Shown here: positions 8,788 to 31,065 of the stretch, one piece after another
Layout: each line of letters opens with the position of its first letter
Position numbering within the stretch: the stretch's first letter is position 1
Assembly (NCBI GenBank): GCA_048938895.1
Contig: JBHLLU010000048.1
Coordinates: forward strand, 1-31,360
Direction: 5' to 3'
From: Promethearchaeota archaeon
GTDB lineage: Archaea > Asgardarchaeota > Lokiarchaeia > Sigyniarchaeales > SOKP01
DNA: 31,360 nucleotides
Notes under the pieces: model-generated
What the model was told of the DNA's origin: nothing
The model's input: the letters and a program-made list of their open reading frames with translations, nothing else
The model's database searches: none
Translations under genes and position numbers: made by a program

Positions 8788-9477
8788 TTAAACAAAGTCC
8801 GTTATTTTCCTGTTATTTAAAATTTCCTCGACGATTTTTTTTACTGTTTCCCATGATTTTCTAGCAAATGGAGGGATTTTTTTGTATTTTTTTATCCAAT
8901 CTCTAAGGAAATCAATAGTTTTTCTATCTGAAGGATACCCAGATCCGAAATCTCCATATTGATTCTTTAAATCCTCAATTAACTCATCTCTTTTGTCTTT
9001 TGCAATAATTGAGGCTGCAGAAACGATAGGAAATAGATCGTCAGCTTTATGTTTTGATACGATTTCTTCTGGAGTATAATCTAACAGATTTTTTATCGAA
9101 TTCCGGAACCTTTCCTCGCTAACGTCAACAGCATCGATATAAATAAAACTAGGTTTTAGTTCTTTAATAATTTCAGCCATCTTTAGTTCCTCTAATCGGT
9201 TCATAGTGACCCTTTTTTCTTCCCTATGATCAATTTCTTCAGGAGGAACTATTACAATTTTGAAGGAATGACATTTTTCGCGGATTAAACCAGATAACTC
9301 TCTCCTTCTCTTAGTATTTAGTTTTTTTGAATCCTTTACACCAATCTTAGCTAAATAGGGCAAATCTTCTTTTTTATAGCAAACCCCACATAAAACAAGA
9401 GGACCAATAACGGGGCCTGTTGGCAGATAATTCGATATGAATTATATTCTACCAGCCTCGTCAATACCGCAAATCAA
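8788..9477 (-). CDS. rnhB: Ribonuclease HII, two exons: complement(join(8788..9418,9449..9477)), 219 aa after removing a 30-nt insert
   Basis: GGAG at 9490-9487, then TTG ATT TGC GGT ATT GAC GAG GCT GGT AGA [30 nt] GGC CCC GTT ATT GGT CCT = MICGIDEAGR|GPVIGP. Downstream: GVKDSKKL, YIDA, HKADDLFPIVSAASIIAK, GSGYPSD and a C-terminal PIP-like NRKITDFV. Confidence 0.93.
9419..9448 (-). other. Putative 30-nt BHB-type intron in rnhB
   Basis: Insert splits the conserved DEAGRGP motif and carries an in-frame TAA. Internal 7-bp hairpin AUAAUUC/GAAUUAU; central helix UGGU/GCCA flanked by bulges AG^A and AC^A. Confidence 0.8.
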
Positions 9478-9490
9478 TATTTAAATCTCC

Positions 9491-10492
9491 CTAAGAATCT
9501 TGAATAAGTTCAATAAATTCCTCCTCATCATCCACTTGTTCTAAGTTTTTAATCTTAACTATGTGGATATCTTTACTTGTTATTAAGCCTGGTATTTTTA
9601 CGTTATTATCGATGATGTAAAGAGCAGTTTTATGAAATAATTCATTAAACATTTTTAAACAATTTATATTATTTTCATTTACTTTACTTTTCTCTTCAGA
9701 GATGGCAGAAAATAATGGATAAAAACCACCGCTTTCACCGTTTTCAAGAGATGAAAATAAGGAAACTTTGAATGGAATGGAACCTTTCTTATACCAATAA
9801 GAAGAGAGCCCGATATCCTTTATAATATCTTCAATATGAGATTCAAATTCACTTAATTCTATTCCTTCGGAGATTTCTTTATCTCCCATATCGTTTTGAA
9901 TATTCCATTTGAATATGTTAATCTTTTTGAATAATTCACTTTTCTCTAAGATATTAAAAATCTTTTGAGCCATTTCTTCTGAAGGACGCATACTCTCATT
10001 TTCATATGAACTAACTGTTCTTTTAGTTATACCTAACCTCTCAGATAATTCTTTTCTCGTTATTGAATGCTGTTCTCTTAGTTCTTTCATCAAATCGCCG
10101 TTTAAGAACACTACCCTTCCACCTCTCCTAGCTAAAATATAGGGGTATATATTGTTTAATAATATGTTCTCAAGAGTATTCAGAGTTATAAATGGTAAAC
10201 CATTTCTTATATAAATTGTATTATCTTCTAACTTCTGATATCTATTCCTAATTCCTATTAATAAGGGCTTAGATTTTAAGATTAAGGATAAGGACTTTAT
10301 ATCATTAACTATATCTGGATTTAAGTTGTCAATGTTAGGAAAGACTTTTACACTAAAAATCAAATCATCTTTCTTAACTAATAAGTCAAAACAAAATTTA
10401 CTTTTTGTATTTGAGAAAGTTCCTAATGAGAAAGTTTCATAATTAGCCTTTTTCAGCAGACTATTTATTTGTTCGATAACTGTGCCTGTCAT
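9491..10492 (-). CDS. Archaeal HTH transcriptional regulator (COG1395-like: nuclease-like N-domain + Cro/C1 HTH)
   Basis: CFDLLVKK...VKVFPNID, LEDNTIYIRNGLP, ARRGG and the HTH ITRKELSERLGITKRTVSSYENE. Confidence 0.85.
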   Translation of the reverse strand: MTGTVIEQINSLLKKANYETFSLGTFSNTKSKFCFDLLVKKDDLIFSVKVFPNIDNLNPDIVNDIKSLSLILKSKPLLIGIRNRYQKLEDNTIYIRNGLPFITLNTLENILLNNIYPYILARRGGRVVFLNGDLMKELREQHSITRKELSERLGITKRTVSSYENESMRPSEEMAQKIFNILEKSELFKKINIFKWNIQNDMGDKEISEGIELSEFESHIEDIIKDIGLSSYWYKKGSIPFKVSLFSSLENGESGGFYPLFSAISEEKSKVNENNINCLKMFNELFHKTALYIIDNNVKIPGLITSKDIHIVKIKNLEQVDDEEEFIELIQDS

Positions 10493-10610
10493 TAAATCCA
10501 GTTACTTAAATTGTAAGTAATAATTTAAATTTTCTCTTATTCAGATAATGAATGAAAACTTATTTAATTTATTACTATCTTCAGTGAATATTAGTGGTTA
10601 ATAACAAAAT

Positions 10611-11183
10611 TCAATGATCCTGAGTGATTTTAAGAAAATCAGCATCAGTTATTATCCCAACAAAATTATGTTGATCATCTTTTACTAAAACAGCAGAATA
10701 TCTTATAAGCAAATTTGAGATATCTTTCACATTCCATGTCCTATCAACTTCAGGGAAGGGAAGTTCCTTGATGAGAGATACATCAGCACCAAGAATCTCA
10801 GGATTATCAGTTATATATTTTTGAATTTTTTTAGAGGTTATACTTCCAAAATTTTGTTTATCTTCTATGATGGGAAGTTGCGAGATGTTTTCTTTATGCA
10901 TAATTTCTACGGCTTCTCTTATAGTGGAAGATGGTTGAATTGATTTGATATCCCGTGTCATAATATCTTTAGCATGCATTGTAGATTTTTTACGTTTAAT
11001 ATTTTCACGCTCTAAATATTCGTATATCATTTTGAATCTAGTATATGAGGGATCGATTGTCCCACTTTCAATTCTTGAGATTGTAGATTGTGTTAATTTC
11101 AATTCATTAGCAAGTTCCTTTTGACTTATATTTAATTTCTTTCTTATACGCTTAATTTCATCTAAGGAAGGTAAATTTTTCAT
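10611..11183 (-). CDS. HTH (Xre) + CBS-pair transcriptional regulator (COG3620-like)
   Basis: IRKKLNISQKELANELKLTQSTISRIESGTIDP, then CBS motifs AKDIMT, ISQLPII and VGIITDADFLK. ATG at 11183 preferred over 11216 because LPSLDEIK is the usual family start. Confidence 0.88.
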   Translation of the reverse strand: MKNLPSLDEIKRIRKKLNISQKELANELKLTQSTISRIESGTIDPSYTRFKMIYEYLERENIKRKKSTMHAKDIMTRDIKSIQPSSTIREAVEIMHKENISQLPIIEDKQNFGSITSKKIQKYITDNPEILGADVSLIKELPFPEVDRTWNVKDISNLLIRYSAVLVKDDQHNFVGIITDADFLKITQDH

Positions 11184-11200
11184 AATCGATAAGTATTTTT

Positions 11201-11217
11201 TATGCGAATTATGCATA
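11201..11217. promoter_or_regulatory. Possible operator palindrome TATGC-N7-GCATA upstream of the HTH-CBS gene
   Basis: TATGCGAATTATGCATA lies 18 nt upstream of ATG 11183 in otherwise very AT-rich DNA. Confidence 0.35.
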
Positions 11218-11381
11218 TTATGATTACAAAATATTTATAAATATTTTTCATACCCTAATTTTAAATACCCAGATTAAATGAAAAGTTCATATTTTTTATT
11301 TAATAAGGAATTTAACTGATAAATAATTTAAAAACATACTTAAATGAACAATTAAAATCATTACCAAGTTGGTTAAACGAA

Positions 11382-12626
11382 ATGTTAAAAATTACTCGGG
11401 CTAACTTTTTACCTATTGAGAAAAGTGAAATTCCAGAACTCGTTGAAAGGAAGGGTATTGGACATCCTGATACTGTCTGTGATGCTGTAGCAGATGCATG
11501 CTCTAGAGCTTTATGTATGTATTACCTCGAAAATTTTGACCGAGTTTACCACCATAATGTCGATAAAGCAGCTCTTGTTGGAGGGACTGCAAGACCAGAA
11601 TATGGGGGAGGTCAAATTATTCAACCACAATATTTCCTTATTGTTGGGCGTGCAATAAATCAGATTCTTACTGAATGCCATGATGGTTCTAACAAGCTTG
11701 AATATGTTCCAATCCCAACCATTTGTATTGATACACAACGTGAGGTTTTATCCAATATTTTTAGAAATCTTGATTTAAATCGTGATATCCAGTTCGATTA
11801 TGCTGTTCGACCGGGTTCTATTGACTTAACAGGTGTATTTGATGAATCTCATCATACAGAAGATGTACCTTTAGCAAATGATACCAGTTTTGGTGTAGGA
11901 TATGCACCCTACTCTGACGTAGAAAAAATCGCATTAGAATCTGAGAAACTTATAAATTCAGATGAATTTAAGAAGAAATGCAAAGCTTCAGGAGAGGATA
12001 TCAAAGTTATGGTTGAGAGGATCGGAAATGAGGTGGGAATAACAATTGCAGCTGCTATGGTTAGTAAGCATATAAACGATGCAAGTGAATATGTGAGTTA
12101 TACCAATCAAATAAAAGATGCAGTCTTAGATTTAGCTACAGATATTATCCCTGATAGAGATGTTAGCTGTCAAATAAATGTTGCAGATAATATCGAGAAA
12201 GGTATAATGTATTTAACGATTACTGGCACATCAGCTGAAGCAGGGGATGATGGGGAAGTTGGTCGTGGGAATCGGTCGAATGGATTGATAACTCCTTGTA
12301 GAACTATGAGTTTGGAAGCTGTTTGTGGAAAGAATCCAATAAATCACGTAGGAAAAATATATAACGTTTTAAGTACAGAAATTGCACGAGAAATCATTAA
12401 TCGAGGTCAAGGAGATATAGTGGAAGCACATGTAAAGTTACTCTCTCAGATAGGACACCCAATAACACAGCCATGGGTTAATTCCATTGAACTGATCCCA
12501 GCAGATAATGTAAATTTTGAATCAGTGAAGAGAATTGCTGAGGAAGTATCGGCTGAAAGACTTAGTAAAGAGTATCTAATCGATTTAAGAAAAAGGTTGA
12601 TCGCAGGCGACGTCCAAGTATTTTAA
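11382..12626 (+). CDS. mat: Archaeal-type S-adenosylmethionine synthetase
   Basis: [54 protein letters not shown] and [13 protein letters not shown]. Confidence 0.97.
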
Positions 12627-12649
12627 AATTACTGATGCAGATAAACAAA

Positions 12650-12672
12650 TTTTTATTTTTTTCTCTTTTTTT
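12650..12672 (+). terminator. T-rich archaeal-type terminator after mat
   Basis: Near-continuous oligo-T tract starting about 24 nt after the stop codon. Confidence 0.5.
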
Positions 12673-12716
12673 ATATATTAGATTTTGAAATAGGATATCT
12701 AGTCATCAAATATTTA

Positions 12717-12986
12717 TTGGATTATCAAATGGGTTTAGATAAATGGCTTAAATCTGATGAAGTAGATAAGAAGCAGATAAAAAAGCCTAATGAGGATAAA
12801 AAAAAGAAGGACGAGGAACTGGAAAAGTCTAACATAAAAACAAAAAGGTTGAAATTGCAAAAATACATCCTCAATTGTTCTAATTCAAAATGTAAGTATC
12901 AGAAAATAGTCATGAAAAAAGAGCTTACTGATATAGATAAGATATGTCCTAGATGTAGTAAAGAAATGAAAGTTAAACGCTCTTAA
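12717..12986 (+). CDS. Small basic zinc-ribbon protein
   Basis: CSNSKC...CPRC with a charged linker; start is either TTG 12717 or ATG 12729. Confidence 0.7.
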   Translation: MDYQMGLDKWLKSDEVDKKQIKKPNEDKKKKDEELEKSNIKTKRLKLQKYILNCSNSKCKYQKIVMKKELTDIDKICPRCSKEMKVKRS

Positions 12987-13011
12987 TTTAATTTGTTTTT
13001 CAGTATTATTA

Positions 13012-13242
13012 TTAATTATCAATAGGTTTAAGAGTTTTTAAGTCAAAAATAGATTCACAGTTAGGGCAGGTGTTTGGCTTTTTGCTGTATTTTAATATAA
13101 AATAGACAATAAAGCCCAAACCGATAGTTAGGATTACCATAAACAGCAAAACCTCATGATAGATATGATCAAACGTTTTTCTTCTTAATACAACTTCTTT
13201 TTCGCAAACAGGGCAATAAGCAGTCCTTTTCGTTTTTCTCAC
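13012..13242 (-). CDS. Small membrane-associated zinc-finger protein, LITAF-like architecture
   Basis: CPVC, then an approximately 20-aa hydrophobic segment, then CPNC. Confidence 0.7.
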   Translation of the reverse strand: MRKTKRTAYCPVCEKEVVLRRKTFDHIYHEVLLFMVILTIGLGFIVYFILKYSKKPNTCPNCESIFDLKTLKPIDN

Positions 13243-13299
13243 TGTATCAACCCGTTTACATCAAGTATTTTATATTAATTTATATTCATTGAAATATAA

Positions 13300-14064
13300 T
13301 TATTTTTGGTTTAAAATTATATTATTTCTGATATCATTTCGCAGTATTTTTGCAGGTCTCCCAATATAGATGGAATTTTCTTCAATATATTGATTAATCG
13401 TAGTATAGCTTCCCATTCCTAAAATAGCTCCATTTTCTACTATTGTTCCGGGAGAGATCACACTAAATGCGCCAATAGTACATCCCTCTTTTAAAAGCAC
13501 TCTTTTAATCAATAAATATTCATCAACAATCATAGAGCTCATGATTACTGACCCTTCTCCAAGAATAACATTATTCTCAATTATTATAAAATCTGAATCG
13601 ATATAGCTGTCTAATACTCCGCTATTGTATGAAACTTTTATACCTAATGATTTTAAGGCGAGCAATTTTGCCCATGGTAAAGGAAAGTAATTAAATATTT
13701 TCAAAGTGAGACTCTTTATATTTTTTCTCATAATAAAGAAAAGATAATCATTATTTTTAAAAGATCTTTCAAATAATCCTTCTCTTGGTTTATGAATTAA
13801 GATTAAAATAGTTAAAATTAATTTTGAGAATAAAAGTAAGAAGAGAATGAACATTCCATAATAAAGGACTATTGACACAGGTAAGAAGAATATTATTAAA
13901 AAAGTCGGTAAAAATAGGGAAAATATTTGGAAAAAAAGCATGAAGATTAAACTTGTAGGGAAAATCGAAAGCCATATCAAGATTAGATACAACCAAAAAA
14001 ATTTAAAAGGCGTTGTGCTGTTAGAGGTGACCACTGATTTATTAACCGATATGATTATCACCAT
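13300..14064 (-). CDS. Membrane protein with hexapeptide-repeat (left-handed beta-helix) domain
   Basis: TM hairpin followed by IENNVILGEGSVI and LKEGCTIGAFSVISPGTIVENGAILG...YIGRPA. Start uncertain (14064 or nearby); the ORF-track start at 14145 overlaps the upstream gene by about 100 nt. Confidence 0.8.
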   Translation of the reverse strand: MVIIISVNKSVVTSNSTTPFKFFWLYLILIWLSIFPTSLIFMLFFQIFSLFLPTFLIIFFLPVSIVLYYGMFILFLLLFSKLILTILILIHKPREGLFERSFKNNDYLFFIMRKNIKSLTLKIFNYFPLPWAKLLALKSLGIKVSYNSGVLDSYIDSDFIIIENNVILGEGSVIMSSMIVDEYLLIKRVLLKEGCTIGAFSVISPGTIVENGAILGMGSYTTINQYIEENSIYIGRPAKILRNDIRNNIILNQK

Positions 14065-15595
14065 CCTTGTAAATGGAATTATAGTTTGAAAGGGAATATA
14101 ATTTGTCATATTTAGAAGTAGTAGATAGAGGAAGTAAAGATACATTGTCCTCGATTTCTGTCCCTGGTGCTATACAACAAATATCTGAAATAGTTATATT
14201 ATTTCCTATGATGATGCTTTTAATAGTTAGACTCTCATCCCACAAGTGGCTCGCCAACAACGCTTTTCCTAAATATGAGTTATATCCTACAGTTAAGAAT
14301 TCTTTAGCAATAAAACTATCTTCGATAATTGTATTTTTCCCAAATTGGCAGTTACCTATGAAATTAAAAGCAGGCCTCATTAACCATGGGAATGGACTCT
14401 TTTGTATTTTCCATTTGACATATCTTAGGATAAAAGAGCGTTTGAAGTAACTCTTGTAATCATTGTTTTTATTGGACCAATGCAATATTCCCTCCTTAGC
14501 GGGATTATTATATCGAAAAATTTTGTATACTATTTTAGAAATTAATATAACGGAAAACAAATTTATCAAATACAAACATATGATAAAGACAGGTGTTAAT
14601 AAAAATACAAAAAAGGCAGGCAGTTCTGTAAATAGATTAATTATAGTAGGTTCTAGTAAAAAAAAGGGATAGAAGAAGTTATGAAAAAAATAAAGTAGTC
14701 CTAAAAGTGGGATTAAGTTAGATAGGAAATAGATGATACCAAATGTAAAGATATTAAGATTTAAGTTTTTTATGAATTTCTTTTCAAAATTCCTATTAGT
14801 GTGTTTCCTAATGACTGGGGGAGAATTCAGAAAATCCATTTTATTAATAAATTTGGAGGGTTCTTGTGAAGGATTAGAGATTTTTTCCGCAGGGTTTCCA
14901 ATATAAATTGCATTAGGTTCTAAAATCTGGTTGATTTTAGTGCGTGACATTGTTCCTAGTATGGTATTAGAACCGATATGAGTACCGGGTGCTACAAAAG
15001 AATTAGCACCAATAACAACATTATTTTCAATAACAATTTTTTTAATTATTAAATGTCTCCCGTCTATCATGCTTGATTTTATTGAACATCCTTGACCGAT
15101 GGAAAGATTATTTCCAAGTTTAATGAATTCAGTATCAATCTGTCCTCTAGATATATTGTTTGAATAATCTGTCTTCACTCCTAGTACCTTCAATATAAAA
15201 TTATGGATTAATGGAACCGAAATTAGGTTAGCTAACCAGATTGGCCATTTCTTAATAACTGCTCTTAAACTCCAAAAGTAGTAATCTCGATCTGTTCTTA
15301 CCTTTTTAAAGACTCCTTGCCTAGGTTTGTGTAAAAATTTAATAAAATGGAGAATTAGTTTAGATAAATAAGCTGACCCTATAATAAGCGTTAAATATCC
15401 AATACATAATGTAAATGGTAATAAAAAGTAAATGAGGATTATATACTCCCCTACTAGAATCCAAAAGAAGTATATTTCCATAATAATAGGTAATAAAGAG
15501 CCCCAAATAATTGAAATATATATAACCAAAAATTTTTTTGATATCAGAGCGTTTGTTGTATAAAGGCCATCCTGAATTGAGACAGGGTAAGACAA
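14042..15595 (-). CDS. Membrane protein with two (TM hairpin + hexapeptide-repeat) units
   Basis: IENNVVIGANSFVAPGTHIGSNTILG...YIGNPA and IGNNITISDICCIAPGTEIEDN, each preceded by two TM segments. Confidence 0.82.
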   Translation of the reverse strand: MSYPVSIQDGLYTTNALISKKFLVIYISIIWGSLLPIIMEIYFFWILVGEYIILIYFLLPFTLCIGYLTLIIGSAYLSKLILHFIKFLHKPRQGVFKKVRTDRDYYFWSLRAVIKKWPIWLANLISVPLIHNFILKVLGVKTDYSNNISRGQIDTEFIKLGNNLSIGQGCSIKSSMIDGRHLIIKKIVIENNVVIGANSFVAPGTHIGSNTILGTMSRTKINQILEPNAIYIGNPAEKISNPSQEPSKFINKMDFLNSPPVIRKHTNRNFEKKFIKNLNLNIFTFGIIYFLSNLIPLLGLLYFFHNFFYPFFLLEPTIINLFTELPAFFVFLLTPVFIICLYLINLFSVILISKIVYKIFRYNNPAKEGILHWSNKNNDYKSYFKRSFILRYVKWKIQKSPFPWLMRPAFNFIGNCQFGKNTIIEDSFIAKEFLTVGYNSYLGKALLASHLWDESLTIKSIIIGNNITISDICCIAPGTEIEDNVSLLPLSTTSKYDKLYSLSNYNSIYKDGDNHIG

Positions 15596-15728
15596 GAGTT
15601 CAATCCTATAAAAAGTGAATTAAAATTGTTCAATTAGTATTTATCAAAAGAATTAAACTTTTTGGGATTTTTATTATATTCTAATCCGTAATCTAATTTG
15701 TTTCTAAACAAATAAGTAATACTAATAG

Positions 15729-15908
15729 TTAATTAAAACCTCGAAATGGTTTTTTTTCTGGTTCTTTTCTTTTTTTCTCTCCTGTTGTTAGCAAGTTAAA
15801 TGTATTATCAACTCCTAATTCGCTTAATTTTTTTCTTTCTTCATCTACAGAATAATCTTCTTCATCTAAAGAAAGTTCTTCCTCGTCATTCTCTTCTTCA
15901 CTTATCAT
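15729..15908 (-). CDS. Small acidic hypothetical protein
   Basis: MISEEENDEEELSLDEED...KKPFRGFN; SD-like GGAAGTGA just upstream of ATG 15908. Confidence 0.6.
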   Translation of the reverse strand: MISEEENDEEELSLDEEDYSVDEERKKLSELGVDNTFNLLTTGEKKRKEPEKKPFRGFN

Positions 15909-16075
15909 GATCACTTCCTTAAACTCTACTAAAATAGTAAAGTTCATATTAATAAAATTTGGCAAAGTTAAGATATAGAACAATAACAAAATATATTCTA
16001 AAAAATATTTTAAATCTGGAATTTACTAATTTATTAAAAAAATATTTCTTTTAAAAAATATAAATTGGTATAAAT

Positions 16076-17044
16076 ATGACAAATTGTGCTCATTGTGGAG
16101 ATGAGATAATTGGAGAACTTTTCTACTGTAATAAATGTGGATATAATTATTGTTTAAGGCATAAAGAACCAATCAATCATGATTGTAACATTATAATAGA
16201 AAGTTCTGGAATACAACAATCTGCTACAGCTTCACAAATATATAATCAAGAGCCTCAGGTAATATCTGTAACCCAAGGTCCGAGACGCGGCACTACAGAT
16301 GGAACATATACTTGGTATCGTCAAGAATCTCAAGTCCCAGTGAATGCTTTTGACCCCGATTCTGGAATTGATTTTAAAGGAATCTTATTGCCTCACAAAT
16401 CTGAATTGTTTCATTTTGTCATTGGTGTTTCTATAATATTTATTGTAGGCATGTTAACATTTTTACCTAATCTTCCTCAATTAACAGCTCTTGGGTATGA
16501 ATGGGCTATTTTCATGTTAGCGGGATTTTATGCTACAGCGTTTTTCTTTCATGAATTAGGACACAGACAAGTAGCGAAACACTTTGAGCTTCAAACTAAA
16601 TTCAGATTGTTAACTTTTGGAATGATTTTAACTGTTTTTGGAGTAGTTTTTAATCTCTTTTCACTGGCTTCTGGAGGTGGAAGTTTTCCATCATTAGCTT
16701 TACCAGGAGCTGTTGTTGTTTTAGGGTTGAGCACTATAAATAGAACAACAGGGCTTTGTAAAACTGCAGGACCTTTGGTAAATCTTATATATGGGGTAAT
16801 TTTATTTGCAGTTTCCTTCTTAATTACTGACTATCCACTTAACATGTTGATAGGGTTAGCTGCGAATTTAAACTTCATGCTTGGAACGTTCAATATGATT
16901 CCCATTGGCATTTTAGATGGTCAAAATATTTGGAAATGGAATAAGAAGATATATATTGTATTATGTGGTTCATTAGTGACACTTTTAATAATGACATATG
17001 TTATTATATATGCTCCACAAGGCTCCAATCTTTACTTTCCTTAA
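16076..17044 (+). CDS. AN1-type zinc finger + site-2 protease (peptidase M50)
   Basis: CAHC...CNKC...CLRHKEPINHDC; HELGH, AGPLVN and NMIPIGILDG metal-binding motifs are intact. Confidence 0.9.
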   Translation: MTNCAHCGDEIIGELFYCNKCGYNYCLRHKEPINHDCNIIIESSGIQQSATASQIYNQEPQVISVTQGPRRGTTDGTYTWYRQESQVPVNAFDPDSGIDFKGILLPHKSELFHFVIGVSIIFIVGMLTFLPNLPQLTALGYEWAIFMLAGFYATAFFFHELGHRQVAKHFELQTKFRLLTFGMILTVFGVVFNLFSLASGGGSFPSLALPGAVVVLGLSTINRTTGLCKTAGPLVNLIYGVILFAVSFLITDYPLNMLIGLAANLNFMLGTFNMIPIGILDGQNIWKWNKKIYIVLCGSLVTLLIMTYVIIYAPQGSNLYFP

Positions 17045-17192
17045 TAGAAAAAAACTCGATGTAATATTCTAATTATTTTTACTACTAAAAATAAAAAGTA
17101 AAAATTATGAAGGATGTTAATTTTAAATTATTATACGTTTAAATTCCTAATTAGAAATATTGAAAAAATTATTAAGTCTGTGGTGAATTAGA

Positions 17193-18176: not shown

Positions 18177-18216
18177 TAATCTAATCTTTCAAATTATTGG
18201 TAACGTTATCAATGAG

Positions 18217-18873: not shown

Positions 18874-18933
18874 ATTAAAAATAAAAGCAAAAGAATATAA
18901 TATTAATAATAAGGAAAATAATTCTGGTGTATC

Positions 18934-19350: not shown

Positions 19351-19368
19351 TTTTTTTTATTTTTTAAT

Positions 19369-21467: not shown

Positions 21468-21498
21468 CGTTTAGCACTTAGATTTTTTATTTATTTAA

Positions 21499-22539: not shown

Positions 22540-22558
22540 ATTGAATTAAAAATTTTAA

Positions 22559-23668
22559 TTATATTTCTGGGGGGCTAGGTAAGGTTTTCCTGCCGCTTTC
22601 GCTGATCTTCGTTCTATTTGCTATAATTTTAGAATCGCTTAAAACATCTTGTCTTTCTACATGGGTTGCAGTTCCACCAACTAGTGCCAATGCATTATAA
22701 AAGATTTCATAGGTAAGTAATTCAGAACTTAGTGCTTTCAATAATGCCACTCTAGTACCTCTTTCAATATCAGAACCAGAATATCCATATGTCAATTTCA
22801 GAAGTCCTTTTATTTTACTTTTTTTGTTTACTTCATCCCACAATACATTATTATCAAACTCAGATATTTTTCGTCCTAATTTATTTTGTAATTCCTTCGA
22901 ACTCATCTCAATTTCTTTGTATTCTTCATTTAAACTAGTGAATATTGTGTCGTCAACCCCAATCTTAGCATTCTTAATATTATTGATAAAGGATTCCATA
23001 ATTAATTTACGAAGATGATAATCAGGGAAATCAAATTCAAAGTGAAATGTAAATCGACGCCAAATTGCAGAATCGAGTTGATGTTGATGATTAGTTGCAC
23101 CGAAGATGGCCAAAGGGACACCCTCATAATTAACTCTATCAATTACTTGTAAAAAAGAAATAACAGCTCTTTTAATTTCACCCACTTCATGGATATTTGA
23201 CCTTTCGGAACCGATAGCATCAATTTCATCAAAAAATAGAATAAATGCACCTCTCTCCTTTGAAATTTCTGCTGCTAATTCAACAACACCTCTAATGTTT
23301 TTAATTGTATCTCCTAACAATGGTGAAACAAGTCGATCTGATTCCACAATACATATTGGAATATCGTATTTTTTGGCAAATCCTCTTGTTAATGAGGTTT
23401 TACCCGTACCAGGAGGACCATATAAAAGTACTGTCAAATTGGGTGTGAGTTTTGTGTCTTTCAATTGTTCTTTAAATTCTTCATATTTCAATAAAGCTTG
23501 AAAAAAATCATCTAATAATTCCTTTTTTGTTTCATTCCCTAGAATATCATCCACTGTCTCTTTAATGTCTGCTGAAAGGTATACAGCACCATATTTACCA
23601 AGACGTTCTTTAATTACATCATCAGTGTAAGTTATTTTTTCTTCATTCTCAACACTCTTTTTACTTAT
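22559..23668 (-). CDS. AAA+ ATPase (single domain, SpoVK/COG0464-like); probable ATA start
   Basis: Walker A GPPGTGKT, Walker B FFDEID, GATNH, LDSAIWRRF. Frame is open 38 codons upstream of GTG 23554, with GGAG upstream of ATA 23668. Confidence 0.9.
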   Translation of the reverse strand: MSKKSVENEEKITYTDDVIKERLGKYGAVYLSADIKETVDDILGNETKKELLDDFFQALLKYEEFKEQLKDTKLTPNLTVLLYGPPGTGKTSLTRGFAKKYDIPICIVESDRLVSPLLGDTIKNIRGVVELAAEISKERGAFILFFDEIDAIGSERSNIHEVGEIKRAVISFLQVIDRVNYEGVPLAIFGATNHQHQLDSAIWRRFTFHFEFDFPDYHLRKLIMESFINNIKNAKIGVDDTIFTSLNEEYKEIEMSSKELQNKLGRKISEFDNNVLWDEVNKKSKIKGLLKLTYGYSGSDIERGTRVALLKALSSELLTYEIFYNALALVGGTATHVERQDVLSDSKIIANRTKISESGRKTLPSPPEI

Positions 23669-23697
23669 GATTTCTCAACTCCATTAAAACTAATTTT

Positions 23698-24996
23698 TTA
23701 ATTTTTATTTTCAAACATTATACAAAATTCAGCAATTTCGTTTATAAAATCTTTGAGGTTATCAATTTGAGATCCTATAAAGTTAAAAATTTCCTTTCGA
23801 TACTGAATTGAATCTCTAATTTTCATTTTATCTAATCCTAGATAATTAGGAAAGCATATAAGTTTCATTAAATAGGGAAGGATTTTCTCGTTGGTTTGCA
23901 AATCCTTAAAAATTGCATAAAAAATATTTTCATCAGATAATTTCCATTTTAGGATGCCCATATAAATTAAAAACGCAAAATTCATTGAAATCCAATTTAC
24001 AAATTCTTTTGATAAAAAACCCCTTCTTTGGGATGCAAATGCTAGATAATAAGTTATAAGAGTTTCATTGCTAAATTGGGGCAATAATCTAATAGTTCCA
24101 TCACTTTGTATATTATCTCTTAGGAAATTATTATCAAGAAGAATCTCAACAAAATCCTCTTGAGGTGCTAGAAAAATTCCATCAATTAAGCGCAAACCAA
24201 TACGTTCCGCAACTTTTCCAAGTGCCTCTTCTTCGGCATTAGCTACGGAATCGATGTATGGCAAGAAGACATCATTTTTTAAAATCATGGGAATTTCATA
24301 ATTTTCTTTTTCAGGAAATTCACCAAAATTTGGATCAAGATTATAGAGAGAGGTAATATTATTGATAATTTGATATACTTTCGGAGACATGACTGGAATT
24401 TCAAAATAATCCGGGCTTTCTAATTTTTCTCTATAAAATGTATGTGATTGCAGTAAATGACGTTGACATTCATAGAGATTTGGCGAATGTTTCAGTAATT
24501 TCTCATATATGATTTTAAGGTTTGCCCCCCGTGGGAAAATTTTTTCTTCAATGAATTTTACTAACTGATAGAGGTAAGTATTTTCTAGATTAAGTTCATC
24601 AGGATTAGTTATATGACGCAAAACATTTAGTGCATCTACAGATTCATGCAAAAAATCGATTATATAATCTTTAATATCTATAATTGGGATTTCTTCTCTA
24701 TATTTTATAATAAAATCTTTAATTATCTCATATACATTTGATCTATACATTGCTGAGAATTCTGAAAGGGCTCTAACTTTGCGTATATTTCTCTTTTCTT
24801 CCTCTTGACGGATTTTATCTAGTATTTCAGTGTCAAAAAGTAAGTCGGGATCTAAATCAATAATTATTCTTCGTGTTTCTCTTAAAATTGGGCGCATATG
24901 ACTTATGAATGTTAAATACCTGGGAAGGATATCTGTCCATTTTTCTCGTTTTCTTCCAGGTTTTACTGTCCTAGATGCAGTTTTTTTGTAACTAAT
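23698..24996 (-). CDS. Hypothetical protein; start possibly ATT 24996 rather than ATG 24897
   Basis: 399-aa ORF; frame remains open to 25002, just after a GGGGGT SD-like element. Confidence 0.75.
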   Translation of the reverse strand: MSYKKTASRTVKPGRKREKWTDILPRYLTFISHMRPILRETRRIIIDLDPDLLFDTEILDKIRQEEEKRNIRKVRALSEFSAMYRSNVYEIIKDFIIKYREEIPIIDIKDYIIDFLHESVDALNVLRHITNPDELNLENTYLYQLVKFIEEKIFPRGANLKIIYEKLLKHSPNLYECQRHLLQSHTFYREKLESPDYFEIPVMSPKVYQIINNITSLYNLDPNFGEFPEKENYEIPMILKNDVFLPYIDSVANAEEEALGKVAERIGLRLIDGIFLAPQEDFVEILLDNNFLRDNIQSDGTIRLLPQFSNETLITYYLAFASQRRGFLSKEFVNWISMNFAFLIYMGILKWKLSDENIFYAIFKDLQTNEKILPYLMKLICFPNYLGLDKMKIRDSIQYRKEIFNFIGSQIDNLKDFINEIAEFCIMFENKN

Positions 24997-25018
24997 ATTT
25001 ATTCAACCCCCTTTTATT

Positions 25019-26158
25019 TTACTCTTCCTCGTATCCAACTAAAATTTCAGTAAAGATATTAGAAATTTCTACAAATATGGGTATCTCTACTCTGCATAAA
25101 TTCCCTAAGATCCATTTATTAACATCTTTAAGAAGAAATCTTATCTGATTATGGATTTTTTTATTGATTTCAGAATCCACGATTTTTGAAAACCATAAAC
25201 CACCCCCTACTCGATACGCAACAATTTTAATAAGTGGTTCAAATAATGGTTCTAAAACTTGTTTTATCATCCACGATTTGGGAATAACACTCATGTTCTC
25301 TGCTTTAAAAGTGGGATCATTTAAAATCGGGTTTGTTTCATCAATTGATAATTTTGGCATGAAACTTAATAACAATATTAATGCAAAAATAGCCGAAATA
25401 CCGTTAATAGTATATGATCCACCAATTTTATCGAGATCATCTCGATGGATGGAGACATTTGCTAGAAACATACACATAAACACATTCCTATCAAATTCTT
25501 CGGAAACATATGCATATCCTACTTCTTCATCAATAACGAGATATTTTTCTTCAAGAATTCTTATGATATCATCTGGAAAGGTATAAAAAGTATAAATTTT
25601 CTCCTCACTCCTTCTTATATCTTTCTCAATTACGAGTTCTTTAGAAACAAGTCCAAACATATTGACTAATTCTTCAAGCTGCTTTTTTATATAGTGCCTT
25701 GGTTTATTTGGGTTGCCAAACATGGCGTAGAATTGATGATCGACTATATGGAAATCATTTCTTTTACTAAATGCTTCCACCATCCTATCTATTATTGGTC
25801 CTTGAGAGTCTGATGCAATAACTTTAGCTTTTGAAGTTACAAAACCATTTAGTAATTCATTTATAATGAAATCTTGTTCATGAGTCCTAGATTTTAAAAT
25901 TTTTTCAAATGCTTCAGAGAAATTTTTCGTATTTGGGAAAAACGCGTTTTGTATTTTCTCGTTTATAGACTGTATAAAAATTTCCCCATTATTTTTTGGA
26001 AAGTGAAGTCTCATATTATTAAGCCTTTGCATGAGTGCCTCTCTAGCCCCTGGAATATTTTCAACATCTCTTTTTTGTAATTCTTCAATAGCCTTCTCAA
26101 GGCCATTTTCAAAATCACTCAATAACGTTTTCCAAGTAGTGTCTTGAACTTCTCCCAT
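25019..26158 (-). CDS. Hypothetical protein
   Basis: About 380-aa ORF tightly packed in the cluster; no motif recognised. Confidence 0.75.
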   Translation of the reverse strand: MGEVQDTTWKTLLSDFENGLEKAIEELQKRDVENIPGAREALMQRLNNMRLHFPKNNGEIFIQSINEKIQNAFFPNTKNFSEAFEKILKSRTHEQDFIINELLNGFVTSKAKVIASDSQGPIIDRMVEAFSKRNDFHIVDHQFYAMFGNPNKPRHYIKKQLEELVNMFGLVSKELVIEKDIRRSEEKIYTFYTFPDDIIRILEEKYLVIDEEVGYAYVSEEFDRNVFMCMFLANVSIHRDDLDKIGGSYTINGISAIFALILLLSFMPKLSIDETNPILNDPTFKAENMSVIPKSWMIKQVLEPLFEPLIKIVAYRVGGGLWFSKIVDSEINKKIHNQIRFLLKDVNKWILGNLCRVEIPIFVEISNIFTEILVGYEEE

Positions 26159-26186
26159 TTTTATTCTCAATTTTGAAAATATGTTA

Positions 26187-27149
26187 TTAGGTTATATCCC
26201 AATTTAGTTCTGTTGAGATTTTTTTAAGTGCCCGAATTAGAGGTTTAATTAACTTTTTATCATAAATATTAGGGGAGGAGACACCTTTTTGAGTTTTCCA
26301 ACCCATTTGAGTACCTTCTCCCATTTCTCTTTGTCCATATCTTAAGATGTTACTAAGATCTCTAACCCACCAGTAAAATCTTAGCCATTTTCTGTTTGGA
26401 TTGTCCTTGGAATAAATTACTACTAAAGCTTTCCATTCACCCATTAACCATTTTACTGTTATCCCGCTTACAGGCAAGTAATAGTTTATAGGGAAATTTC
26501 CGTGAAATCGCAAATCAAGATCAGCTGACACAATGTTAAAAATTGGTTGATTATATCCTTCTAATATTACGATTTCTCCACAATGTTGACATTCATAGTG
26601 TGACTTCATTTTATCCATTTTATTCCCGCATTTTGGGCAAGTCTTATTTTCAATAATCCTATATTTAATGATATCTAGCATTTTTTCTTTTTCCAACTCT
26701 TTCTCTGATTTAGGTTCTTGTTTTCCATAACTGCCACTCCAATTCCAGATATCATCAAATGATTCTTCAATTTTCTCTAATGCAATTATAATATTGTTTA
26801 GGACCTCTTTATCATAGATTTTTAACATACCGGCATGTTGTAAATTTTTCCACCAAGAGAGTCTTACATATTTCTCCTCCTTCAGATAACCACTATGGCA
26901 AATCAATGCAGCAAATAATCGATTTTCAGTTTTACTGATGGTAATGCCTTTTTCACAGACTTCATATTGTTTATTTAAACTAACATTTTTATGAAAATAT
27001 TCACCATCTTGAAATTCACCTTTTTCAATTTTTAACTTTTCAGTAACACTATCTTCCGCTTTCTCTTTAACAATCTTTCTACATTGTGGGCATTGAAAAA
27101 TTCCCGAAACCAATGACTCCATTTCTATATTACAAGCAGGGCACTTCAC
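26187..27149 (-). CDS. Protein with two tandem (zinc ribbon + beta/alpha domain) repeats
   Basis: CPAC..CPQC / CPKC..CQHC; GITISK / GITVKW; KYVRLSWW / KWLRFYWW; IYDKEVLNNIIIALEKI / IYDKKLIKPLIRALKKI. Confidence 0.8.
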   Translation of the reverse strand: MKCPACNIEMESLVSGIFQCPQCRKIVKEKAEDSVTEKLKIEKGEFQDGEYFHKNVSLNKQYEVCEKGITISKTENRLFAALICHSGYLKEEKYVRLSWWKNLQHAGMLKIYDKEVLNNIIIALEKIEESFDDIWNWSGSYGKQEPKSEKELEKEKMLDIIKYRIIENKTCPKCGNKMDKMKSHYECQHCGEIVILEGYNQPIFNIVSADLDLRFHGNFPINYYLPVSGITVKWLMGEWKALVVIYSKDNPNRKWLRFYWWVRDLSNILRYGQREMGEGTQMGWKTQKGVSSPNIYDKKLIKPLIRALKKISTELNWDIT

Positions 27150-27151
27150 AG

Positions 27152-28252
27152 TTAATCTTCGCTGTTAGTTATTATGAATCTTTCAAAATCTAAATTTAGT
27201 AATTTCAAATCTTTCTTGTTCAATTCTGAAATCTTATCATTAATACTCATTACTTCTTTTCTGAGATCCACTAAACTTTTTTGGATGTTATCTAGTATAT
27301 CTTCCTCATTGTAAGTAACTTTTTCAATGAATTCTAGATATTTGAACTTTTTATCCTTTCCTGAATAATATTTCTTTAATTCAAGGATATTTTTTTCTAT
27401 TTCAACTAGTTGATACCTAGTTTTCAACAAAAAATTCAATTTGGAAATCCAATCGTTATAAATTGCTTCTTGTTTATTTATCTTATCGAAATTGAACTTA
27501 TCAGATAATTCAACATTCTCATCTTTCAAATAATTTATAATTTCTTTATCTTCTTCAATTGCTTGGTTAATTTTCTTTAACGCGGGTTTAGTATTAAGAA
27601 TTGGGTCGAAAATCTTGATGAATTCGTTAATTTTCTCTTCAATTTCCTTAAGTCTCTGATAGAATCCTTCAATAGTTATTTCGATTTTAATTGCTTGATA
27701 GATATTTCCAAATTGATCTAAAATATAATATAAATCATTTGCTAATTTATAGTCATGTTCACCTATTTCATAAATTAAAGAGTGAACAATATTACTCTTT
27801 TCACATCTTACTCCCTTTAATCTTGTAAGAGCTAAATTAAAATTTCTTCTTGCTAAGTTTTTAAACTTTTTGTTTATTATGAGGAACAATGTATCATCTG
27901 GAACAGATATAGTATCATGTTCGATTGTTATAGTTTCTTCTCCGATTTTAATGATGAAATCATCCTCTTTTTGATTAAATTCTCTCATGCTTCGAATATT
28001 TTTAATCAGTCCTAAGTCAATATAAATTTCTATAAATTCTTCTTCCCAGAATTTAACTATATTACTCTTATATATTTCATCAATAAGCAAAATTCGGTTG
28101 TAAGCTTCTATGAGGTTCGAATCCGTTAAATCCTTAAGTAAATCATTTCTAATTACATACAGGAACAGAATGATATACCTCATATCAACATCGTCCATGA
28201 TGGTATCTATTAATTTTGCATCATGTTCCATTGTCAAGGTTTTATGCTCCAT
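27152..28252 (-). CDS. Hypothetical protein with C-terminal coiled coil; first gene of the cluster
   Basis: Long ORF; ATG 28252 (MEHKTL) preferred over 28327 on composition, but the start is uncertain. Confidence 0.75.
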   Translation of the reverse strand: MEHKTLTMEHDAKLIDTIMDDVDMRYIILFLYVIRNDLLKDLTDSNLIEAYNRILLIDEIYKSNIVKFWEEEFIEIYIDLGLIKNIRSMREFNQKEDDFIIKIGEETITIEHDTISVPDDTLFLIINKKFKNLARRNFNLALTRLKGVRCEKSNIVHSLIYEIGEHDYKLANDLYYILDQFGNIYQAIKIEITIEGFYQRLKEIEEKINEFIKIFDPILNTKPALKKINQAIEEDKEIINYLKDENVELSDKFNFDKINKQEAIYNDWISKLNFLLKTRYQLVEIEKNILELKKYYSGKDKKFKYLEFIEKVTYNEEDILDNIQKSLVDLRKEVMSINDKISELNKKDLKLLNLDFERFIITNSED

Positions 28253-28485
28253 ACCTAAAATCCACTCACTGTTTTTTAAACTATGAAAACATTTCAGTGA
28301 AAAAGAGTACTTGATGTAATTAACCATTCCTAAAAAATTTTTCTAAATCCTTGGAAAGAATTTATATACACGAATTTAGTTTAACCTCTACTCTGTTTAT
28401 ATTTAAAATCAGTATAATCCATAGTTTGAACTAAAGAATCAAAAATTCTTTTTTTGTTTAAATAGGTTTAATTCAATAAAAGTTT

Positions 28486-29286
28486 ATGATAAGAGAAAAT
28501 TCATGTAGGTTTTGTGGATGGAAATTTCCAATAGGACATAAAGAAATAAAAGAAAATGCAACTTTGCTTTTTTGCGAAAACTGTGGTACAAAGATTTTTT
28601 CAGAGAATGATGAAGATTATGATTTAACTACAATATCTGGGGAAAAAATTAATAAATGCGATTCCTATGATATTATCCGAGAGGAAAACAATCCTATTGC
28701 AAGAATTGTATTTGACTCCAATTTTCCAGACATTTTTAAGGACAATTTAAAACTTGTAATATCTCGACTTCTATATATCCATTTAGGACCAAATTTGAGT
28801 GATCAGATAATAATTAAAGAAAAAAAGGAAATCACTAAAGAAATTCTTGATGATCTCTACGATAAGATTAGCCCAATAATGAACCTAAGAATTAATGATA
28901 TATTTTTAACTAATCTACATGAATTAAGTGTAAAAGAGTTTCTTAAGTGGTTAAAATTATTACAAACCAAAATTATACAAAATATTAATTTCCGTAAAGA
29001 TTTTACTATTTTCCTACGATGGATGATACAAGAAGTTTATACTATTATTATAGAGTTGTGGAACAGTAAAAAACTCCCTAGATTTGAACGAATCATACGC
29101 GATGATTTAAAATCATTTCAAAACTATCTTTCTAGTAATGGCAGATCTCTCAATACTTCAGCTGGATTGAGTATAAATCAAAAAGGAAAATCTCGATATA
29201 GGAATCCCCCACATCGTATAAATTTAAATCTTTATGTAAAACCTGTCATAGAAAAATTCCTAAAGTCAGTTAAGTCAAGACAATAA
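28486..29286 (+). CDS. Zinc-ribbon hypothetical protein; possibly the N-terminal half of a gene fused to the downstream GIY-YIG ORF
   Basis: CRFC...CENC at the N-terminus. Same frame as 29338..30372, separated only by TAA 29284-29286 and 17 sense codons. Confidence 0.65.
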   Translation: MIRENSCRFCGWKFPIGHKEIKENATLLFCENCGTKIFSENDEDYDLTTISGEKINKCDSYDIIREENNPIARIVFDSNFPDIFKDNLKLVISRLLYIHLGPNLSDQIIIKEKKEITKEILDDLYDKISPIMNLRINDIFLTNLHELSVKEFLKWLKLLQTKIIQNINFRKDFTIFLRWMIQEVYTIIIELWNSKKLPRFERIIRDDLKSFQNYLSSNGRSLNTSAGLSINQKGKSRYRNPPHRINLNLYVKPVIEKFLKSVKSRQ

Positions 29287-29337
29287 CAACTTAAACTTGA
29301 TGTCAATCAACCTTATATTACTTTAAATACAAAAACA

Positions 29338-30372
29338 ATGATTAATGTCTACATTAATAGAGGTTTATATGATTATGTAGGAACTGTATATAGAATAATT
29401 GAAAAATCCACTGGTAAGATACTTTATGGTTTTACTTTAGATACAGTAGACGTAAGATGGCAGAATTATAAAGAGTTTGCTCTGAAAAATCGGCATTCAG
29501 GGAATTTATTACCTATAGAACAAGCCATTTTAGATACAATTGATTCAGGACAAAACCCAGATGATGCATATGTAGTTAAGCCTGTTGAGATCTGCTTTGA
29601 TTACAAAACATTGAGAATTAGGGAAGACTATTGGATAAATAAACATGAGACAAGAAATCCCTTAAAGGGATTTAATACTTATAGAGGTGGTGGTGGAGGT
29701 CCTAAAATACATTTACCTATCGGGATTATTGCAAGTTATATAGCAAAAGGTTTAAAGGTAACCAAAATAGCAAATCTTCTTTTTACAGAAAAGAATATAT
29801 TGGTTGGTAGGAAGACCGTTTCACGAAGGATAAACGAATATTGGGGTGGATTCGATAAAGCCAGAGAACTCTTTCTTAAGCCTGTATTAGAAGACCTTAT
29901 AAAAACTGGATTTAATTCTAATGATATCATTGAAGCGTTCGGTAAGAAAGGAAGAAATATAGTAGATCGGTTAATTCCTTCTTTCTTTAATGTCGAGACT
30001 TTTAGTGAAGCCAGAAGAAAATTCTTAGTTGAAATTATTGAAAAATTAATTATTGAAGGATTAGGTCCTGTAGGAATGGTGAAAAGATTAGAACATTTTG
30101 GTGAGAAAGAGATAGCGTCTAGAATCGCTGAAGAGTGGGGTAATCTAAAAAAAGCTCAAAAGGAGTTATGGAGACCAATTATCATACAAAGTTTTAGAGA
30201 TGGAATTAGCGGTTCAGATATTTTAATATCACTTGGTTATAAAGAAACCACAGCCAAGAGAAAGCATAATCAAATTTATGCACGTTTGTTCTGGGGAATG
30301 AGAACCGAAGAGGTTAAGGAATTTGCTCTATCAATCCCATTAGATCAATTAGAATCTATTGTCTATTTTTAA
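29338..30372 (+). CDS. GIY-YIG-like endonuclease with about four C-terminal HTH-like repeats (homing-endonuclease-like)
   Basis: GTVYRIIEKSTGKILYGFT...RWQNY...REDYWINKH...GFNTYRGG follows the GIY-YIG/R/E/N pattern; about 50-aa helical repeats follow. Confidence 0.7.
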   Translation: MINVYINRGLYDYVGTVYRIIEKSTGKILYGFTLDTVDVRWQNYKEFALKNRHSGNLLPIEQAILDTIDSGQNPDDAYVVKPVEICFDYKTLRIREDYWINKHETRNPLKGFNTYRGGGGGPKIHLPIGIIASYIAKGLKVTKIANLLFTEKNILVGRKTVSRRINEYWGGFDKARELFLKPVLEDLIKTGFNSNDIIEAFGKKGRNIVDRLIPSFFNVETFSEARRKFLVEIIEKLIIEGLGPVGMVKRLEHFGEKEIASRIAEEWGNLKKAQKELWRPIIIQSFRDGISGSDILISLGYKETTAKRKHNQIYARLFWGMRTEEVKEFALSIPLDQLESIVYF

Positions 30373-30455
30373 TTTATTATGATAACCAAAAAGTATTTTA
30401 GGTTTTTTATCTTTAGATCCCTATAGAACTGTTTATTAAATAAGATGTGGTGAAT

Positions 30456-31065
30456 ATGGGTCGTCGTAAAAGAAAACAAGTTACTCCTAAAAGAGTTAAA
30501 AGAGTACCAAAGATTTTCACCTGCCCTGAATGATAAGACTGATTCTCAGTTTATCCAGAAATGCGGTGAAAAATCCGTAAAAGTCACAGATATCAAGAAA
30601 AAAGGTGCTTTCGCAACAGTAAAATGTGGAAACTGTGGCTTGACAAAGGAAGTGTTAGTAAATTCTATCTCAGAACCAGTAGATGCCTTTGGGGATTTTA
30701 TAGATATATATTATGCTGATCAAGAACTCCAACGATTAGAGAAGCGAATTCAAAAATTAAAAGAAGAAAATGAATGGGGTGAACTGGCTTTAGGGTACTC
30801 TATTTTATCAGATCTTTGTAAAACTAAAGCTGCGGTATTATTAGAAGAGGAAGATGTGAATTTAGATGAGGTAAATGAGTGGAAAATGAGAAGTGAAAAA
30901 TATAAAAGACTTGAGAAAGATGCTATTTTGAAGCTTGAGACAGATGAACTTGAAAGGGGAGTAAAAACTGATGAAGAATCATTATTTTCTGAAAGTGATA
31001 CAAAGATAAAAAAAGAACGAAAGATAGAAGATATCTTTGATGATCCTGGCTTTTTAGAGTTCTAA
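30456..31065 (+). CDS. elf1: Transcription elongation factor Elf1 with C-terminal extension, two exons: join(30456..30530,30562..31065), 192 aa
   Basis: GTGGTGA SD, then MGRRKRKQVTPKRVKRVPKIFTCPE|CGEKSVKV...VKCGNCGL...SEPVDAFGDFID. This is the Elf1 basic N-terminus, C4 zinc ribbon and EPVD motif once 31 nt are removed. Confidence 0.92.
30531..30561 (+). other. Putative 31-nt BHB-type intron in elf1
   Basis: Insert TGATAAGACTGATTCTCAGTTTATCCAGAAA splits CxxC and adds stops and a frameshift. Inner hairpin GAUAAGACUGA/UCAGUUUAUC; central helix CCUG/CAGA (one C-A mismatch); two AA^U bulges; exon-exon helix UUUUCACC(U)GC/GCGGUGAAAA. Confidence 0.87.

Follow-up and report, generated by a model that had tools for sequence, protein, structure and literature searches.

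Bulge-helix-bulge mini-introns predicted in messenger RNAs of a Promethearchaeia genus

Two interrupted core genes in a 31,360-nt window

The stretch of DNA analysed here (positions 1 to 31,360 of contig JBHLLU010000048.1, assembly GCA_048938895.1 of a Promethearchaeota archaeon; hereafter the window) contains two genes, rnhB and elf1, that encode RNase HII and Elf1 and are each interrupted near the 5′ end by an insert of 30 or 31 nt. We consider it very likely that both inserts are archaeal bulge-helix-bulge (BHB) introns in messenger RNA. Since inserts of BHB shape are present in rnhB, elf1 and at least four more core genes of the genome, this genus or lineage very probably splices some of its messenger RNAs. 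The cutting and joining, and the enzymes responsible for them, we infer from the known archaeal pathway for tRNA, rRNA and cbf5.

The source genome, labelled G000, comprises 4.65 Mb in 174 contigs with 31% GC and a completeness score of 98.7%; the genomes and loci of its relatives carry G and L numbers. An earlier account of the window made from its letters alone (the sequence-only reading) took the genome to be probably Asgard, and the nearest public records are indeed metagenome-assembled genomes (MAGs) titled Promethearchaeota or Promethearchaeia.

In the proposed mechanism exon 1 of the primary transcript would pair, through its last bases, with the last bases of the intron to give a central helix of 4 bp. 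Pairing between the two exons would provide an outer helix and the intron's own hairpin an inner one, leaving two 3-nt bulges on opposite strands. The splicing endonuclease EndA would cut each bulge after its second base while the exon-exon helix holds the halves together, and the ligase RtcB would then join the exons and probably circularise the intron. The joined messengers would encode an intact RNase HII (...GIDEAGR-GPVIGP...) and an intact Elf1 (...FTCPE-CGEK...).

Structure and register of the inserts

Read literally, rnhB gives the peptide LICGIDEAGR, followed by the insert (I, a stop and then FISNYLPT) and by GPVIGPLV. Exon 1 can be aligned with the N-terminus of insert-free orthologues, and exon 2 matches Pfam RNase_HII (E 1.3e-42) over profile positions 9-199 of 199, the missing positions being the share of the short exon 1. 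Excision of the insert gives DEAGR-GPV, exactly as in the insert-free orthologues. The situation in elf1 is closely similar. Exon 1 is 67% identical (tblastn) to residues 3-26 of Elf1 from the outgroup, a complete genome representing a different family of the order (2.4 of its 4.36 Mb, i.e. 55%, were compared). Exon 2 matches Pfam Zn_ribbon_Elf1 (E 7e-10; profile positions 28-78 of 79), and here too the missing start is the part contributed by exon 1. Excision gives CPE-CGEK, again exactly as in orthologues that have no insert.

The motifs were scored with a rigid BHB descriptor, i.e. a 3-nt bulge, 4 bp and a 3-nt bulge on the opposite strand, with the cut after the second bulge base (marked below by an arrow). 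Two registers of the rnhB insert lead to the same spliced product, and exactly one of these (AG↓A...AC↓A) is a BHB. In its predicted fold 4/4 central pairs are formed, with 5/6 pairs in the inner helix and 5/6 in the outer helix with a one-base slip. Of 20,000 random placements matched in length and register number, 0.13% reached the resulting score of 14/16 (P 0.0013). For elf1 there are five registers with the same spliced product, and once more exactly one (AA↓U...AA↓U) is a BHB; the predicted fold has 3/4 central pairs, 6/6 in the inner helix and 4/6 in the outer helix, and the score of 13/16 was matched by 1.3% of the random placements (P 0.013). In the minimum-energy fold the outer helix of elf1 extends to 8 bp with one bulged U. 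As modelled, the elf1 motif is a slightly relaxed form of the BHB.

A self-splicing group I or group II intron was considered for these inserts and rejected, the ribozyme core of such introns requiring hundreds of bases as against the 30-31 nt found here; no Rfam family reached its gathering score in the window. When both intron regions were compared with the genome as a test for repeated elements (blastn-short), only chance matches of 13-17 nt were returned. The sequence-only reading had raised the possibility that intact second copies of rnhB or elf1 accompany decaying loci in the window. None was found in G000, where a genome search gave a single match for each gene.

Conservation and compensatory change in relatives

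A match to RNase HII is present in 39/41 genomes of the order. All 24 same-genus loci, this one included, carry an rnhB insert of 29-30 nt at the same site. By contrast, the six loci read from other families (6/6) are free of it, running through GAYGARGCNGGNAGRGGNCCNGT so that G(L/I)DEAGRGPV is unbroken. Public MAGs contributed 14 more distinct intron-bearing rnhB sequences and five more distinct insert-free ones; nine loci, four from Promethearchaeota (L210-L213) and five from Methanosarcinales or Thermoplasmatales (L215-L219), were not placed by the anchor. A metagenome scan using the two exon flanks with a gap of 0-30, such that either spliced or unspliced sequence could match, returned one match, which was unspliced and lay on a contig 78% identical to the window. 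The rnhB insert thus occurs in independent assemblies, both in public MAGs and in a metagenome contig from a relative. Exon 2 is 61-78% identical to its same-genus orthologues and 23/24 matches are stop-free, the lone TGA (in G022) sitting in a match that is broken by a run of N.

The rnhB helices have been preserved through sequence change. In an alignment of 37 distinct sequences, 93.3% of 775 cells were compatible with the BHB pairing, compared with 30-46% when the 3′ partners were slid by 1-3 columns. Ten of the 21 pairs have changed on both sides, which was reached by 0/500 shuffles. All four pairs of the central helix vary compatibly; the helix is UGGU/GCCA in this genome and CGGG/CCCG in L200.

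The elf1 insert has a narrower distribution. It is found at an identical site in 5/21 same-genus loci (31 nt in four, 32 nt in one), while the other 16 of the 21 and eight loci from other families read TGYCCNGAN-TGYGG(NGA) straight on; one further other-family locus had no upstream sequence. Exon 2 is 82-93% identical between congeners. The hairpin stems differ across the five intron-bearing species (GACUGA/UCAGUU, AAUUGG/CCAAUU, GCUCG/CGAGC and AAUUG/CAAUU), and all five keep the register, the bulges AA↓U...A(A or U)↓U and 3/4 central pairs. The third base of the proline codon in the exon (CCU or CCA) covaries with the opposing base in the intron, and the exons of all five intron-bearing alleles contain UUUUCACC...GGUGAAAA, which form the outer helix.

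Candidate splicing enzymes

EndA is represented in G000 by two paralogues of ~200 aa (contigs C83 and C123), both containing the two Pfam domains. One is nearest to chain B of the tRNA-splicing endonuclease entries 3p1z and 3ajv (E 7e-35), which we take to be crenarchaeal heterotetramers; the other is divergent. The two probably form an alpha-beta heterotetramer. In the available text of PMC5829648, Asgard EndA is described as (alpha-beta)2 with an L1 loop, to which a broad substrate range is tied. A single RtcB is encoded on contig C5 (E 5e-170).

The sequence-only reading had attributed to both inserts in-frame stops, an internal hairpin and complementarity between the exons, with each 3-nt bulge cut after its second base and exact restoration of the motif on excision. 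Reading and folding of the sequence agree with the first of these claims, the sole BHB-giving register in each gene with the second and the insert-free orthologues with the third, and the BHB-intron anatomy as a whole is upheld by those orthologues together with the covariation and the presence of EndA and RtcB. A shared AUAA...UUAU followed by C, to which attention had been drawn, is present in both introns here and is not conserved in the orthologous introns of relatives; we read it as a coincidence at 31% GC.

A survey for further introns

In a forward survey, 2,239 non-overlapping outgroup open reading frames (ORFs) of at least 60 aa were compared with G000 by tblastn, and 1,077 matched. 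Three signatures were sought, namely in-frame insertions in the subject that contain stops, adjacent pairs of high-scoring segments (HSPs) with contiguous query and extra subject DNA, and displaced short terminal exons. The survey is blind to genes that have no homologue in the outgroup and to very short exons. Both introns of the window were recovered as positive controls, and four new ones were added, in the genes for RNA polymerase A′, RNA polymerase subunit N, DnaG and a hexapeptide-repeat protein (Table 1). The interrupted genes are single-copy (one match each in G000) and of an essential type, and their exons are conserved in the intron-bearing species.

Under the unique-register test the structural null gives P values of 0.005 for A′, 0.00025 for subunit N, 0.08 for DnaG and 0.5 for the hexapeptide gene. 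The last two introns appear to be relaxed motifs, for which the argument comes mainly from exact restoration of the frame and from insert-free orthologues. The same register is found in orthologous introns of DnaG (7/7) and A′ (2/2), and in those of subunit N for 4/6 by script and for the other two by hand.

Other searches yielded no more introns. In a reverse survey of 4,412 G000 ORFs against the 2.4 Mb of the outgroup, there was no intron among 19 HSP pairs and five in-frame candidates. Three of these places were inspected and proved to be adjacent genes (hdrA/mvhD, and oppB/oppC-like) or a continuous frame, and the remaining cases were judged by their parameters alone (extra DNA of 200-400 nt, mostly in multiples of three, or low identity). 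A search for terminal exons followed by a BHB filter gave no further candidate, with 27 real hits as against 22 from reversed-query controls at a score of at least 13. Searching the flanks of 191 loci with 340 G000 ORFs likewise disclosed no further intron.

The set in G000 thus appears to comprise at least six introns, with a density of ~6 per 1,077 comparable genes (roughly 0.5%). The sequence-only reading had expected routine splicing and many more such introns. That there are others is confirmed by the four found; 'routine' and 'many more' are unsupported at this density and with none in the 2.4 Mb of the outgroup, and the occurrence of two introns within 31 kb is better regarded as a coincidence of placement than as a sign of routine splicing.

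We note that all six introns lie inside the most conserved peptide motif of the host protein, a placement that may be caused in part by the method of detection.

Table 1. Locations of the predicted introns and associated features in the window (coordinates) and elsewhere in genome G000 (contigs). Arrows mark the predicted cuts.
Feature	Location	Strand	Length	Details
rnhB exon 1	9449..9477	-		Putative TTG start 9477-9475; end ...GCT GGT AG; (M)ICGIDEAG plus first two bases of an Arg codon
rnhB BHB mini-intron	9419..9448	-	30 nt	In-frame TAA; inner hairpin 9447-9439/9433-9425, loop 9438-9434
rnhB exon 2	8788..9418	-		Begins A GGC CCC GTT; stop codon 8788-8790
Complete rnhB BHB motif	9408..9463	-		Outer exon-exon helix 9463-9455/9416-9408; central 4-bp helix 9454-9451/9424-9421
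rnhB bulges	5′ 9450-9448; 3′ 9420-9418	-		5′ AG↓A; 3′ AC↓A, 9417 likewise unpaired
elf1 exon 1	30456..30530	+	25 codons	Reads MGRRKRKQVTPKRVKRVPKIFTCPE; end ...TGC CCT GAA (FTCPE)
elf1 BHB mini-intron	30531..30561	+	31 nt	Opens with stops TGA TAA; inner hairpin 30532-30542/30546-30555
elf1 exon 2	30562..31065	+		TGC GGT GAA to stop; CGEKSVKV...
Complete elf1 BHB motif	30516..30570	+		Outer exon-exon helix 30516-30524/30563-30570; central helix 30525-30528/30556-30559, 3 pairs plus C.A mismatch
elf1 bulges	5′ 30529-30531; 3′ 30560-30562	+		5′ AA↓U; 3′ AA↓U
RNA polymerase A′ intron	contig C159		85 nt	Excision restores GHFGHI-E-LARPV (HIELA); in 2/24 same-genus loci (G000, G022), 0/6 other-family loci
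RNA polymerase subunit N intron	contig C21		31 nt	Excision restores CCKRMIV-SHVDL; in 6/22 same-genus loci, 0/8 other-family loci
DnaG intron	contig C144		37 nt	Excision restores AIFGQ-TEGLL; found by Smith-Waterman search of unaligned outgroup termini; in 7/24 same-genus loci (37-40 nt), 0/4 placed other-family loci
Hexapeptide-repeat protein intron	contig C123		31 nt	Excision restores IIGHHA-MIHG; in 3/22 same-genus loci (G000, G002, G004)

Turnover of introns within the genus

Comparison of the loci in Table 1 suggests that the set of introns turns over within the genus. In A′, 21 same-genus loci have no insert of any kind. The A′ gene of G017 (L237, ~1735-1765) has a different 30-nt BHB intron, with a score of 14/16, located between GHFGH and IELARPV and thus 6 nt upstream of the site occupied by the 85-nt intron of G000. 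This indicates an independent insertion into the same conserved motif. In the hexapeptide gene the open frame is 90 aa in the carriers, compared with 181-191 aa in 19 congeners.

On a rough tree of three proteins (1,085 columns, FastTree; G016 placed on one gene) the hexapeptide-gene intron fits one clade, and those of elf1, subunit N, DnaG and A′ are scattered across two to four clades, the first three of them across three or four. To explain such scatter, one must invoke numerous precise losses or else several gains or transfers. A test for co-conversion in A′ showed a peak of identity between G000 and G022 (0.90) only in the 60-nt window at the intron site, which fits structural constraint and transfer equally well. 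The exon-exon duplex is predicted to be more stable in intron-bearing than in intron-free alleles of elf1 (-11.8 vs -7.1 kcal/mol), subunit N (-15.1 vs -5.7) and A′ (-19.5 vs -8.7), with no difference for DnaG (-8.2 vs -8.5).

We tentatively suggest a broader possibility, which we rate somewhat below an even chance. A single Promethearchaeia genus may be host to BHB mini-introns in active turnover, which settle in the most conserved motifs of essential genes for information processing (A′, N, DnaG, RNase HII and Elf1) and have been gained repeatedly at the same or adjacent sites, with early stops and codon-built exon helices selected so as to allow splicing alongside coupled translation. Gain might then occur by the EndA/RtcB reaction run backwards, or by local conversion between alleles. 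If true, the nearest prokaryotic relatives of eukaryotes would have experienced an invasion of introns that needed no spliceosome.

Alternative explanations

The literal reading of both genes gives in-frame stops and a frameshift, as would be expected if the inserts were disabling insertions or artefacts of assembly and the genes were pseudogenes. We regard this as scarcely credible, given an rnhB insert at an identical site in every same-genus locus and in independent public assemblies, downstream exons that are open and 61-93% identical, the lack of second copies, the like interruption of single-copy RNA polymerase subunits, and compensatory evolution within the inserts. A ribosome might instead hop over the insert in an unspliced messenger, i.e. 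programmed translational bypassing, for which there are precedents in gene 60 of phage T4 and in the short 'byp' elements of some yeast mitochondria. The inserts are indeed short and contain hairpins, in 5/6 the take-off point is followed within 1-3 codons by a stop, and the codon before the resume point matches in subunit N (GUA...GUA) and in A′ (AUA...AUA). However, take-off and landing codons are mismatched in the other four of the six (AGA/ACA in rnhB, GAA/AAA in elf1, CAA/UAU in DnaG and GCA/AGA in the hexapeptide gene), the landing codon of subunit N is mismatched in G016, and the product of A′ would be HIKLA when E is present in all 27 insert-free loci placed by motif scan. Nor would hopping account for compensatory changes in helices that involve the exons, or for the fixed geometry of the bulges. 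Bypassing is therefore very unlikely.

A further possibility is that the introns are spliced as a regulated switch and not as constitutive housekeeping, with a logic like that of eukaryotic HAC1 and XBP1, in which unspliced messenger would terminate at the early stop and the output of protein would depend upon the activity of EndA and RtcB. In 5/6 introns a stop occurs no more than three codons from the 5′ splice site, compared with 19% of random genome positions (binomial ~0.001), and orthologous introns of subunit N and DnaG retain it as UAA or UAG; moreover the hosts are information-processing genes. Against this, the composition of an A-rich bulge and an AU-rich helix readily yields stops, and introns other than that of rnhB occur in just 2-7 of 21-24 congener loci, which makes an indispensable regulatory role improbable. 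We consider such a switch unlikely, if less so than bypassing.

Several points weigh against the interpretation of the inserts as spliced BHB introns. Splicing is a prediction from DNA sequence, and the subunit roles and substrate range of the two EndA paralogues are likewise predicted. The motifs are imperfectly canonical, the outer helix of rnhB requiring a fourth unpaired base at the 3′ bulge and the central helix having 3/4 pairs in elf1, subunit N and the hexapeptide gene. By structure, the introns of DnaG and the hexapeptide gene (P 0.08 and 0.5) are at the level of chance under the rigid descriptor, and the distribution of the latter among relatives rests on the length of the open frame. 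Finally, the species compared are kin, so that the shuffle tests overstate significance; the control with slid partners retains that relatedness. With these points taken into account, BHB introns in messenger RNA are still very likely the correct explanation of the inserts in rnhB and elf1.

Other features of the window and genome

Between elf1 and a divergent gene (27152-28327) lie ~2 kb (28330-30440) with two ORFs. That at 28486-29286 has no Pfam match, and that at 29338-30372 gives a weak match to the GIY-YIG nuclease domain (E 1.3e-4). Only ~200 nt separate the divergent gene from elf1 in the other 20 elf1 loci of the genus, and 29/29 other elf1 loci lack the GIY-YIG ORF. The segment resembles a mobile cassette whose insertion is specific to the species. 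A link between the GIY-YIG gene and the adjoining elf1 intron was considered, and none was shown; the ORF is absent from the other four intron-bearing loci.

The remaining genes of the window are the usual archaeal housekeeping complement, i.e. Elp3, dihydroorotate dehydrogenase, Nop5, fibrillarin, SAM synthetase, an Lsm protein and an AAA ATPase. At 13300-15595 on the minus strand there are two hexapeptide-repeat ORFs (281 and 517 aa) that overlap by ~100 nt in different frames. An open frame at 31096-31360, also on the minus strand, runs off the end of the window and encodes a low-complexity product rich in Gly and Pro, with GGPPGGP-like repeats.

Elsewhere in G000, ARAGORN detects only 24 tRNA genes, 13 of them with introns, compared with 27 for no more than 2.4 Mb of outgroup DNA; many of the tRNA genes of G000 may be too interrupted for detection, or unassembled. 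A Nudix hydrolase gene (contig C17:2814-3317) has one in-frame TAA within the Nudix box (...EQPK, stop, AAIRETEEESGY...). No bases are inserted there, so a BHB intron was rejected, and the gene may be a point pseudogene or contain a read-through site.

Significance and comparison with known systems

Annotation of archaeal genomes assumes that protein genes are free of introns, and at least six core genes here would appear to be truncated or pseudogenes. These include two RNA polymerase subunits that serve as phylogenetic markers. If splicing is confirmed, endonuclease-based splicing of messenger RNA would be a recurrent feature of this Asgard lineage, going beyond the curiosity of crenarchaeal cbf5. 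Since close species differ in which of the introns they carry, gain and loss can be tested directly, and so can the question of how cells with coupled transcription and translation tolerate interrupted messengers. A link between BHB mini-introns and the origin of eukaryotic introns would be speculation; by themselves they have no bearing on the origin of spliceosomal introns, which are different in kind.

An intron in the cbf5 pre-mRNA of Crenarchaeota was reportedly the subject of studies by Watanabe in 2002 and Yoshinari in 2006. The present introns resemble it in being of BHB type within an archaeal protein gene, in the two-subunit EndA, in lineage-specific presence and loss, and in the mis-prediction of the gene. 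They differ from it in their occurrence in Asgard archaea (Promethearchaeia), in the host genes, in number (six or more genes in the genome as against one) and in varying among congeners. In G000 the cbf5 homologue (contig C5) is itself a single, uninterrupted and stop-free frame of 342 aa. The splicing of the cbf5 intron in Crenarchaeota was experimentally shown, according to the available text of Yokobori 2009 (PMC2738675), whereas that of the introns of G000 is predicted.

A structural parallel is offered by Asgard tRNA introns, for which the available part of an October 2026 preprint describes two 3-nt bulges 4 bp apart and repeated gains at splice-competent sites for which there is no explanation; presumably the same enzymes act upon both. 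In the introns described here, by contrast, the host is a messenger RNA, so codons have to supply the outer helix and the reading frame has to be preserved at the junction. In the main text of that preprint the term 'mRNA' does not occur, and 'protein-coding' occurs once, with reference to synteny only. No published description of BHB introns in Asgard protein-coding genes was found in a search to which most subscription journals and supplementary files were external.

In eukaryotes the HAC1 and XBP1 messengers undergo unconventional splicing that is regulated by stress, with twin stem-loops recognised by the endonuclease IRE1. RtcB is said to act as the HAC1 ligase. The parallels with the proposed process are a short intron in a messenger RNA, an endonuclease that reads structure, ligation of the RtcB type and independence from the spliceosome. 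The difference lies in the recognition, which would here be that of a BHB by EndA rather than of twin stem-loops by IRE1, and in the regulation by stress that characterises HAC1 and XBP1.

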